From the IMG/VR virus record IMGVR_UViG_2534681833_000008: DNA of 28,381 nt; one strand, given 5' to 3'. How positions within the stretch are numbered: the stretch's first letter is position 1; each line of letters begins with the position of its first letter. Under the pieces are notes generated by a model that had not been told where the DNA came from, did no database searches, and saw only the letters and a list, made by a program, of their open reading frames with translations. Positions 9,726-15,773 of this stretch are shown in pieces. This DNA is from a virus. Taxonomy: Duplodnaviria > Heunggongvirae > Uroviricota > Caudoviricetes. A program made the position numbers and the translations under genes.

Positions 9726-11282
9726 ATGACAAGTATTCAACAACGTGCAGAACTTCATCGCCAGATCTGGCAAATTGCTAACGATGTCAGGGGTTCAGTC
9801 GATGGATGGGATTTTAAGCAGTACGTTCTGGGCGCGCTTTTTTATCGTTTTATCAGCGAAAATTTTTCCAGCTATATGGAAGCCGATGATGACAGCATCT
9901 GTTATGCAGCACTGGATGACAGCGTAATTACTGATGACATTAAAGACGATGCCATCAAAACCAAAGGCTACTTCATCTACCCAAGCCAGCTTTTCTGCAA
10001 CGTAGCTGCGAAAGCAAATACCAATGACAGACTGAATGCAGATTTAAACAGTATCTTCGTTGCTATCGAAAGTTCTGCTTACGGCTACCCTTCAGAAGCA
10101 GACATCAAAGGTTTGTTTGCTGATTTCGATACCACCAGTAACCGCCTGGGTAACACCGTTAAAGATAAAAATGCCCGCCTGGCTGCGGTTCTGAAAGGGG
10201 TTGAAGGGTTAAAACTTGGTGACTTCACCGAACATCAGATTGATCTGTTCGGTGACGCCTATGAGTTCCTGATTTCTAACTATGCCGCGAATGCCGGTAA
10301 GTCCGGCGGCGAGTTCTTTACACCGCAGCACGTCTCTAAGCTGATTGCACAACTGGCTATGCACGGGCAGACCCACGTTAACAAAATCTACGACCCGGCA
10401 GCAGGCTCCGGTTCGCTGTTGTTGCAGGCTAAAAAACAGTTTGATGACCATATCATCGAAGAAGGTTTTTTTGGTCAGGAAATCAACCATACGACCTATA
10501 ACCTGGCGCGTATGAACATGTTTTTGCACAACATCAACTACGACAAGTTTGATATCAAGCTGGGCAATACGCTGACTGAACCACACTTCAGAGATGAAAA
10601 ACCGTTTGATGCCATCGTTTCTAACCCGCCGTATTCGGTGAAATGGATTGGCAGCGATGACCCGACGCTGATTAACGATGAACGTTTTGCCCCGGCTGGC
10701 GTTCTGGCCCCCAAATCAAAAGCTGACTTCGCCTTTGTACTACATGCGCTGAACTATCTTTCTGCCAAAGGTCGTGCTGCGATTGTTTGCTTCCCGGGTA
10801 TTTTTTACCGTGGCGGCGCGGAGCAGAAAATCCGTCAGTATCTGGTTGATAATAACTATGTCGAAACCGTGATTTCACTGGCACCGAACCTGTTCTTTGG
10901 CACCACCATTGCCGTAAACATTCTGGTGTTGTCTAAACATAAAACAGATACAAAAGTTCAGTTTATTGACGCCAGCGAACTATTCAAAAAAGAGACCAAC
11001 AACAATATCCTGACCGATGCCCATATCGAACAGATTATGCAGGTATTTGCCAGCAAGGAAGATGTTGCTCATCTGGCGAAATCAGTCGCGTTTGAGACCG
11101 TTGTTGCTAATGACTATAACCTGTCGGTGAGCAGCTATGTTGAAGCGAAAGATACTCGCGAAATTATCGATATCGCTGAGTTGAATGCAGAGCTGAAAAT
11201 CACGGTCAGCAAAATCGACCAGTTGCGTAAAGATATTGATGCGATTGTGGCTGAAATTGAAGGCTGCGAGGTGCAGAAATGA
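9726..11282 (+). CDS. hsdM: Type I restriction-modification methyltransferase subunit HsdM (N6-adenine)
   Basis: AdoMet-binding motif [10 protein letters not shown] and catalytic NPPY ([10 protein letters not shown]); stop overlaps the hsdS start (ATGA). Confidence 0.95.
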
Positions 11283-12535
11283 GCGAGTTGAGTTATCTGG
11301 AAAAATTGCTGGATGGGGTTGAGGTTGAGTGGAAACCCTTGAAGGATGTTTGTGATTTTAAAAATGGATTTGCATTTAAAAGCAGCTTATTTAAAGAAAC
11401 TGGGTTACCGATAGTTAGAATCACAAATATAGATGGATTTAATGTTGACTTAGATGAGGTGAAATACTTTTCACTAAATGATTACAAGGAAGATTTATCC
11501 TCCTTTGAGGTATCTATGGGAAATATATTGATTGCAATGTCAGGTGCCACTACAGGAAAAGTGGGAATTTATAAAAAAGGAACAAAATGTTATCTTAACC
11601 AACGGGTTGGAAAATTCATACCCAAAGAAAATATTCTAAACAATAATTATTTATACCATTTTTTATTGTTAAATACAGAGACTATTTATATCCTCGCCGG
11701 GGGCGGAGCACAACCGAATCTAAGCTCAAATGCATTGATGTCAAAACTACTCATCCCAATTCCCTGCCCGGATAATCCGGAAAAATCCCTCGCCATCCAG
11801 TCTGAAATCGTTCGGATTCTGGACAAATTTACTGCACTTACCGCTGAGCTTACCGCTGAGCTTAACATGCGTAAAAAACAGTACAACTACTATCGCGACC
11901 AGTTGCTGAGTTTTAAAGAGGGTGAGGTTGAGTGGAAGGCATTGGGAGAAGTAGCCAAAATACAACGTGGGGCATCCCCCAGGCCAATTGTTAATTATCT
12001 TACTGAACAAGGAAATGGTATCCCATGGATTAAAATCGGAGATACTATCCCCGGCTCTAAATACATTGACAAAACCTTACAAAAAATAACTGCAGAGGGT
12101 GCCCAAAAATCGCGAATCTTGAACCCCGGTGATTTCGTCATTTCTAACTCTATGAGCTTTGGCAGACCATATATTTTAAGGATAACCGGAGCTATCCATG
12201 ATGGATGGGCATCAATCAGCAATTTTGGTGAAAAATTAAATGCTGATTATCTGTATCACTATCTTTCATCAAAAAAGGTGAAAAATTATTGGGAAAGTAA
12301 AATCAATAGCGGGTCGGTCAGTAACTTGAATGCAGATATTATAAAAACATTACCAGTGCCATTGCCTGATAAACAGAAACAAGAGCGAATATCTGCTCTG
12401 CTCGATAAATTCGACACCCTGACCAACTCCATCACCGAAGGTCTCCCGCGTGAAATCGAGTTGCGCCAGAAACAATACGAGTACTATCGTGACTTACTGT
12501 TCAGTTTCCCGAAACCTGAAACTGTCAGTAATTAA
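11279..12535 (+). CDS. hsdS: Type I R-M specificity subunit HsdS, IC family (EcoR124/Ecoprr-like)
   Basis: Two target-recognition domains separated by conserved central ([26 protein letters not shown]) and C-terminal ([19 protein letters not shown]) repeats; the TAEL tandem repeat is the hallmark of IC-family HsdS. Confidence 0.95.
11837..11863 (+). repeat. 12-bp tandem repeat CTTACCGCTGAG x2 (+CTT) encoding the TAEL-TAEL spacer in the HsdS central conserved region
   Basis: Read directly from the sequence. In EcoR124I versus EcoR124II, two versus three copies of this repeat change the spacer of the recognition sequence from N6 to N7. Confidence 0.9.
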
Positions 12536-15600: not shown

Positions 15601-15773
15601 ATATTCGCACGTCTTTAAAACGCGAATACGCCACCGAAAATGGCACAGAATTAAACGAAACATTACCAAAACTTAGTCCGTTGAATCCGCAATATAAAAC
15701 GAAAAAACAGGCAGTTTTCCAGAAAATCGTCTCGTTTATTGAGAAGTTTAAAGGCGTAGGCGGAAAAATATAG
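12657..15773 (+). CDS. hsdR: Type I R-M restriction subunit HsdR (1038 aa)
   Basis: ATG at 12657 with AAGGA SD (track ORF begins at an upstream GTG at 12597). PD-(D/E)xK nuclease motif (VQIELKK), helicase motifs I (TGSGKT), II (DECH), III (FTGTP). Length matches EcoR124I HsdR as I recall it. Confidence 0.95.

Follow-up and report, generated by a model that had tools for sequence, protein, structure and literature searches.

The hsdM-hsdS-hsdR genes and their Type IC relatives

The virus record IMGVR_UViG_2534681833_000008 of IMG/VR (Caudoviricetes) is a DNA sequence of 28,381 nucleotides, which we refer to as the window. It contains three open reading frames (ORFs), hsdM, hsdS and hsdR, which all read in the same (+) direction between positions 9726 and 15773. 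The initial annotation placed the genes at these coordinates and described them as a complete Type I restriction-modification (R-M) cassette of the IC family in a P1-type phage-plasmid. Pfam and PADLOC domains, near-identity to EcoR124, intact motifs and synteny with P1 all bear out that description. Very probably, the region holds a Type IC cassette of the EcoR124 family, hsdM-hsdS-hsdR, that looks functional. The cassette is cargo of a P1-like phage-plasmid and lies in the pmgT-humD variable region, where it and a module on its left flank take the place of the pmgT-pmgU-pmgV genes of P1.

The identity and intactness of the genes, and the family to which they belong, can be read directly. The first gene, hsdM (9726–11282, +), encodes a Type IC N6-adenine methyltransferase subunit of 518 amino acids with the Pfam domains N6_Mtase (2.5e-121) and HsdM_N. 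It overlaps by 4 nt with hsdS (11279–12535, +), which encodes a specificity subunit of 418 amino acids matched by Methylase_S in two stretches. The mechanically defined hsdR ORF begins at a GTG and covers 12597–15773. Since the alignment with EcoR124I HsdR begins at residue 21 of this ORF, the true start is taken to be the ATG at 12657, giving a Type IC restriction/translocase subunit of 1038 amino acids (12657–15773, +) with HSDR_N, SWI2_SNF2/ResIII, T1R_D3-like and EcoR124_C domains. PADLOC labels the three ORFs MTase_I, Specificity_I and REase_I.

The catalytic motifs of both HsdM and HsdR are intact. In HsdM, DPAAGSG is found at residue 223 and NPPY at residue 300. In HsdR, D151...E165-x-K167 corresponds to a PD-(D/E)xK nuclease, and GSGKT at 310 and DECH at 408 correspond to an SF2 ATPase. 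A Type I system is thus represented by all three subunit genes with their characteristic domains.

The closest characterized relatives are EcoR124I and EcoR124II, the Type IC prototypes from plasmids R124 and R124/3, which have the same M-S-R gene order. HsdR differs from EcoR124I HsdR (2w00) at about a dozen positions along its whole length (∼99% identity). HsdM matches the EcoR124II M protein throughout, 8 of its 518 residues being substituted (∼98.5% identity). Such closeness to the family prototypes is the basis of subunit interchangeability and places both proteins in Type IC. In keeping with this family, hsdR is set apart from hsdM and hsdS by an intergenic region, and HsdS has the family frame with a central TAEL repeat, which sets the length of the spacer in the recognition target. 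The cassette is also flanked by P1 DNA, with the hot region on the left and, on the right, the same junction as for EcoDXXI and R124/3 (P1 nt 84482). All the defining features of Type IC that a sequence can test are therefore present. The replicon differs: EcoR124 is on an IncF plasmid, and the cassette of the window is on a P1-like plasmid whose P1 right flank is complete. The R124-type IncF loci share with the window about 84 bp of P1 DNA 3′ of hsdR (window 15849–15932), which is all the P1 sequence they keep on that side.

As the initial annotation pointed out, the M-S-R order is also that of EcoprrI (prrABCD), a chromosomal locus of the same family. Unlike EcoprrI, which has the prrC anticodon nuclease gene between hsdS and hsdR, the window has no prrC at this position. 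The intergenic region (12536–12656, +) is exactly 121 bp long when hsdR starts at ATG 12657, as had been noted; it holds no ORF and therefore leaves no room for prrC. It does contain a promoter-like site, TTAACA-18-TATTTT, at 12563–12592, and this match to the consensus suggests that hsdR may have a separate promoter. The R-M system of P1 itself, the Type III res-mod system EcoP1I, resembles the cassette in lying in a variable region of a P1-type prophage but differs in type, genes and locus; it adjoins cre/ref and is not in the window.

Comparison with solved structures showed that HsdS does not differ from EcoR124 HsdS in its conserved regions (N-terminal, central and C-terminal), and that both target recognition domains (TRDs; about residues 21–150 for TRD1 and 219–362 for TRD2) are unrelated. 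Because both TRDs differ from those of EcoR124, the target is not expected to be GAA(N6)RTCG. The central conserved region includes a perfect 12-bp tandem duplication, ACCGCTGAGCTT x2 (11840–11863, +), which encodes TAEL-TAEL. EcoR124I, with its N6 spacer, likewise has two TAEL repeats, and the length at this site is that of the 404-residue EcoR124 HsdS chain. Type IC members with an N7 spacer have four extra residues in the central region of HsdS (PMC12707154), so we predict an N6 spacer for the present system.

Among the 120 best HsdS relatives, 68 have just TRD1 in common with the present protein, 32 just TRD2 and two both domains. The exact HsdS protein was found on 91 public contigs in a large protein search, in which the matches carry generic names only; a full-text literature search with the RefSeq accession WP_001293041 gave no match. 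The pairing of TRDs in HsdS is the only distinctive part of the cassette; each TRD on its own circulates widely. The specificity of HsdS arises by modular reassortment of two widespread TRDs within a constant frame, the classical Type IC pattern.

Position and boundaries in the P1-like backbone

Local blastn against P1 aligned three segments of the window: 1985–7950 with pacB to lxr (93.7% identity), 8351–9244 with hot to upfM (81.7%) and 15849–23001 with pap to gene 25 (98.4%). The window also contains eight matches to the C1 operator, compared to 0.13 expected by chance. Synteny and high identity with the immC-pac-lpa-phd/doc-hot and pap-pmgS-baseplate regions of P1, C1 operators and the annotation of near-identical plasmids all identify the backbone as that of a P1-like phage-plasmid (Punavirus).

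The initial annotation had proposed a synteny comparison with P1 to confirm an insertion and map its edges, and had named the presence of the same cassette in reference P1 as evidence against its reading. At this site reference P1 has pmgT-pmgU-pmgV and no hsd genes. Window 9245–15848 stands in place of P1 pmgV-pmgU-pmgT, between hot and pap. On the right, P1 homology resumes at window 15849, which corresponds to P1 nt 84482. In the RefSeq annotation of P1, the same nucleotide starts the homology to sequences 3′ of the EcoDXXI hsd locus and of R124/3 hsdR. The base composition also changes across the region: the G+C content of the cassette is 0.40–0.46, with the minimum of 0.40 over hsdS, compared to about 0.47–0.51 in the flanks.

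The left backbone flank (8342–9244, −) consists of hot (8342–8593; Pfam DNA_pol3_theta) and a region resembling upfO/N/M. It is followed by a 376-bp variable-region module (9245–9620, −) with a 74-amino-acid ORF (9371–9595, −). This module lies outside the core cassette; it gave no homology to P1 or to the P1-like phage vB_EcoM-673R5 and no Pfam match, and the segment 9371–9629 is found beside hot in P1-like plasmids of the IncY group that have no hsd genes. The cassette leader 5′ of hsdM then occupies 9621–9725 (+). Most plasmid matches begin at window 9621 or 9633 (query 522 or 534), and in vB_EcoM-673R5 and an IncFIA/IncR plasmid, phd (window 6828) is joined directly to 9621. The left boundary common to the different contexts is therefore 9621 or 9633, and the right edge falls at 15773, 15848 or 15932 depending on the context. 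Comparison across contexts places the core cassette at about 9621/9633–15773. We also considered a discrete transposable unit and rejected it because neither direct nor inverted repeats were found flanking the cassette.

Directly after the hsdR stop codon there is an 11-bp hairpin (15789–15818; −25.6 kcal/mol, z about −3.7 on each strand) in the last cassette-specific segment before 15849. It has no U-tract on either strand and is not a canonical terminator; it may make the 3′ end of the transcript more stable or serve as a barrier. The right backbone flank (15849–16544, −) matches P1 leftwards of nt 84482 at 98.4% identity and includes the equivalent of the PpmgT promoter and pap (16038–16544, −; Pfam HAD_PNKP). 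The initial annotation had the cassette bounded on this side by a terminator and a C1 operator. Both are present, the terminator at 15967–15989 with a T-run that takes it to 15999 (+; −18.1 kcal/mol, z −4.4) and the operator, equivalent to Op88, at 16022–16038 (−; two mismatches to the consensus). However, they are features of the P1 backbone (the Op88/OpmgT region) and lie 120–260 bp beyond the edge of the cassette.

Prevalence and closest relatives

A novel, lineage-specific insertion would make this phage-plasmid unusual among its P1 relatives, and the deposited phages give that impression. The cassette is missing from P1, from P7 and from most of the P1-like phages deposited, and only 2 of 22 phage records, those of the P1-like phages phi456 and vB_EcoM-673R5, have it in full. 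The plasmids give a different answer. The hsdR/pap junction is present in 262 PLSDB plasmids (query coverage at least 80%) and the P1-type pap segment in 590, so that the cassette is in about 44% of the latter; the junction also occurs in 224 of 5426 complete Escherichia coli genomes (about 4%). With this prevalence, the link between P1 and Type IC in both the P1 annotation and the 1997 work of Tyndall et al., the published plasmid pSvP1 and the exact HsdS protein on 91 contigs, a novel insertion is hardly credible, the prevalence counts being enough to refute it. The cassette is already known and common.

The element most similar to the window is plasmid unnamed6 of the porcine enterotoxigenic E. 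coli (ETEC) strain ETEC1731 (99.96% identity), together with pSvP1_F (99.98% over the shared region), and the HsdM and HsdS proteins of pSvP1/pSvP1_F (from porcine ETEC O157) and of the ETEC1731 plasmid are identical to those of the window. Unlike the window, pSvP1_F has two copies of IS91 in the hot-hsdM interval (at window about 8580) and the ETEC1731 plasmid has IS1203 inside hsdR (at window about 13474–13482); both also differ from the window by a few homopolymer indels. The window is thus the form free of insertion sequences (ISs), both of its closest database relatives having an IS in or beside the cassette. Venturini et al. (2019) described pSvP1 as having 'type I restriction modification ... 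substituting pmg genes' and lacking res-mod (PMC6906374).

In the near-identical ETEC1731 plasmid (NZ_CP122822.1, positions 1–14600, a part outside the window), the annotation shows neither res nor mod in the interval from cre/ref to a gene for a 2255-amino-acid N6 DNA methylase, presumably DarB. An icd/antirepressor block occupies this place. Because no res or mod is annotated there, the Type IC system may be the sole R-M system of the element.

Other loci show the same arrangement with different content. EcoDXXI (pDXX1), vB_EcoM-673R5 and phi456 all have a Type IC cassette with P1 DNA on both sides and the right junction at P1 nt 84482. In these loci the left junction is at the phd promoter (6828 to 9621) with humD-lxr-hot deleted, whereas the window keeps humD, lxr, a 120-amino-acid ORF, hot, the upf region and the 376-bp module. 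Their TRDs also differ from those of the window, and the central region of EcoDXXI HsdS is longer (N7 spacer). Type IC hsd loci were reportedly found to have flanking P1 DNA by Tyndall et al. in 1997 (cited in PMC12707154).

The same block was also seen outside the P1 family. Plasmid pEc2-51408 (NZ_CP104116.1, 112.6 kb) is not P1-like; it carries metG, apbC, rnhA and TerB, and we take it from this gene content to be a phage-plasmid of the SSU5/pHCM2 type. At 6502–14310 it contains humD-hot-[upf region]-hsdMSR, ∼96% identical to window 8342–15773, and the homology stops exactly at the hsdR stop codon. In the hot region it is closer to the window than P1 is (∼96% compared to 81.7%). This suggests that a hot-hsd block has been exchanged between two plasmid families.

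The pmgT-humD interval is variable region 8 of P1-like phage-plasmids (PMC9603915), and R-M systems are among the functions that phage-plasmids exchange most, frequently with plasmids (PMC10879196). Our data confirm the long-known fact that Type IC R-M systems reside in, and probably spread from, this cargo hotspot of P1-like phage-plasmids, with HsdS diversifying by TRD swaps. Given that about 4% of complete E. coli genomes have the junction, Type IC restriction by P1-like plasmids would be a frequent obstacle to both DNA transfer and infection by phages in this species, including porcine ETEC.

Predicted activity, maintenance and regulation

Expression, activity and target recognition are predicted here by analogy with the well-studied EcoR124I, to which HsdM and HsdR show 98–99% identity. 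An M2S1 complex would methylate N6-adenine on both strands of a bipartite target, with one half-site read by each HsdS TRD. Addition of HsdR would give R2M2S1, which would bind unmodified targets on incoming DNA, translocate DNA in an ATP-driven reaction and cut at distant sites. As no C1 operator was found upstream of hsdM (9621–9725), the plasmid prophage probably expresses the hsd genes, which would restrict foreign DNA in the carrier cells. Type IC assembly passes through a cleavage-incompetent R1 intermediate, which makes establishment in naive hosts possible (PMC12707154); such control of assembly would suit a mobile element.

Several observations weigh against this picture of a working system exported by a temperate phage. 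In a consensus scan, 14 sigma-70-like sites were found compared to 13.8 in shuffled sequence, which makes the promoter assignments weak. Relative to the near-identical plasmids, the window has five frame-breaking single-base indels in backbone genes, although the hsd genes are unaffected. The c1 gene (711–1562) has one A fewer than the ETEC1731 plasmid in an A-run at about 1446; its last ∼38 residues are replaced and the ORF ends at 1535, giving 274 rather than 283 amino acids, which is due to a sequencing error or else means a changed repressor. In pmgS (16617–17879, −) one extra A extends an A8 run at 17739, a frameshift also recorded in the annotation of the ETEC1731 plasmid. The remaining three indels are downstream of gene 25, with single-A insertions at 23859 and 23874 in a gene for 242 amino acids (23485–24215) and a further one at 25473 in a gene for 338 amino acids (24989–26006). 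The window may therefore represent a defective or decaying phage, or an error-prone assembly. Either would weaken the idea of a temperate phage exporting an R-M system and would leave the cassette itself untouched. Finally, the IS1203 that interrupts hsdR in the ETEC1731 plasmid leaves hsdM and hsdS intact, so restriction has evidently been lost in some lineages with hsdM and hsdS retained.

That insertion also raises the question of whether the system works as a methyltransferase only, with M2S1 in an epigenetic role and restriction silent or lost. The apparent promoter region of hsdR would fit such a separation of modification from restriction. In the window, however, hsdR is full-length, ∼99% identical to the active EcoR124I HsdR and intact in its nuclease and ATPase motifs, and we regard a methyltransferase-only system as quite improbable here.

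The cassette might alternatively be kept mainly as a selfish, addiction-like stabiliser of the plasmid prophage, beside phd-doc, rather than as a defence. The hsd genes of many contexts adjoin phd-doc in a direct fusion, and the two move together into IncF plasmids. R-M systems are capable of poison-antidote action (PMC10879196), and Venturini et al. count res-mod, absent from pSvP1, among the maintenance functions of P1 (PMC6906374). In the window, though, humD-lxr-hot lies between hsd and phd-doc, and the control of Type IC assembly is tuned to spare cells whose chromosome is unmodified (PMC12707154), an argument against strong post-segregational killing. Stabilisation and defence are in any case compatible rather than mutually exclusive. 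We consider stabilisation unlikely to be the main reason for retention.

The initial annotation suggested that the Dar proteins and the cassette could be co-adapted, P1-family Dar proteins being known to protect against Type I restriction. Dar acts on DNA entering new hosts and not against a resident enzyme, and the prophage is shielded by its own methylation. Protection by Dar is documented against EcoA, StySA, EcoB and EcoK, and Type IC enzymes are not mentioned (PMC12810830). In the literature consulted, the same source, there was no evidence of Dar protection against Type IC, leaving the co-adaptation idea unsupported.

A link with the C1 switch was also considered. The orientation of the cassette is fixed and sets hsdR head-on to the leftward, C1-repressed PpmgT promoter (Op88 equivalent, 16022–16038), and no canonical minus-strand terminator was found between the two. 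Inactivation of C1 at induction could then let PpmgT drive antisense transcription of hsdR and so reduce restriction in the lytic cycle, tying restriction to the switch between lysogeny and lysis. We regard this as a very doubtful proposal; if true, the coupling would extend to every P1-like plasmid that has the hsdR/pap junction, about 260 in number.

Extra defence genes were looked for to the left of hot, where ORFs of 120 and 194 amino acids gave no PADLOC or Pfam match. The 120-amino-acid ORF (7968–8330, +) lies between lxr and hot; it is not in P1 and is present in other P1-like IncY plasmids. On the other side of the cassette, a small hydrophobic ORF, MNTAFKIIMAAIYFWLFSIIFGGIVAHG (15855–15940, −), encodes 28 amino acids (44 in RefSeq) and has a good ribosome-binding site and no Pfam match. 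It lies in P1-homologous DNA just downstream of the C1-controlled PpmgT, and the greater part of it, 15855–15932, falls within the 84-bp P1 remnant of the R124-type IncF loci.

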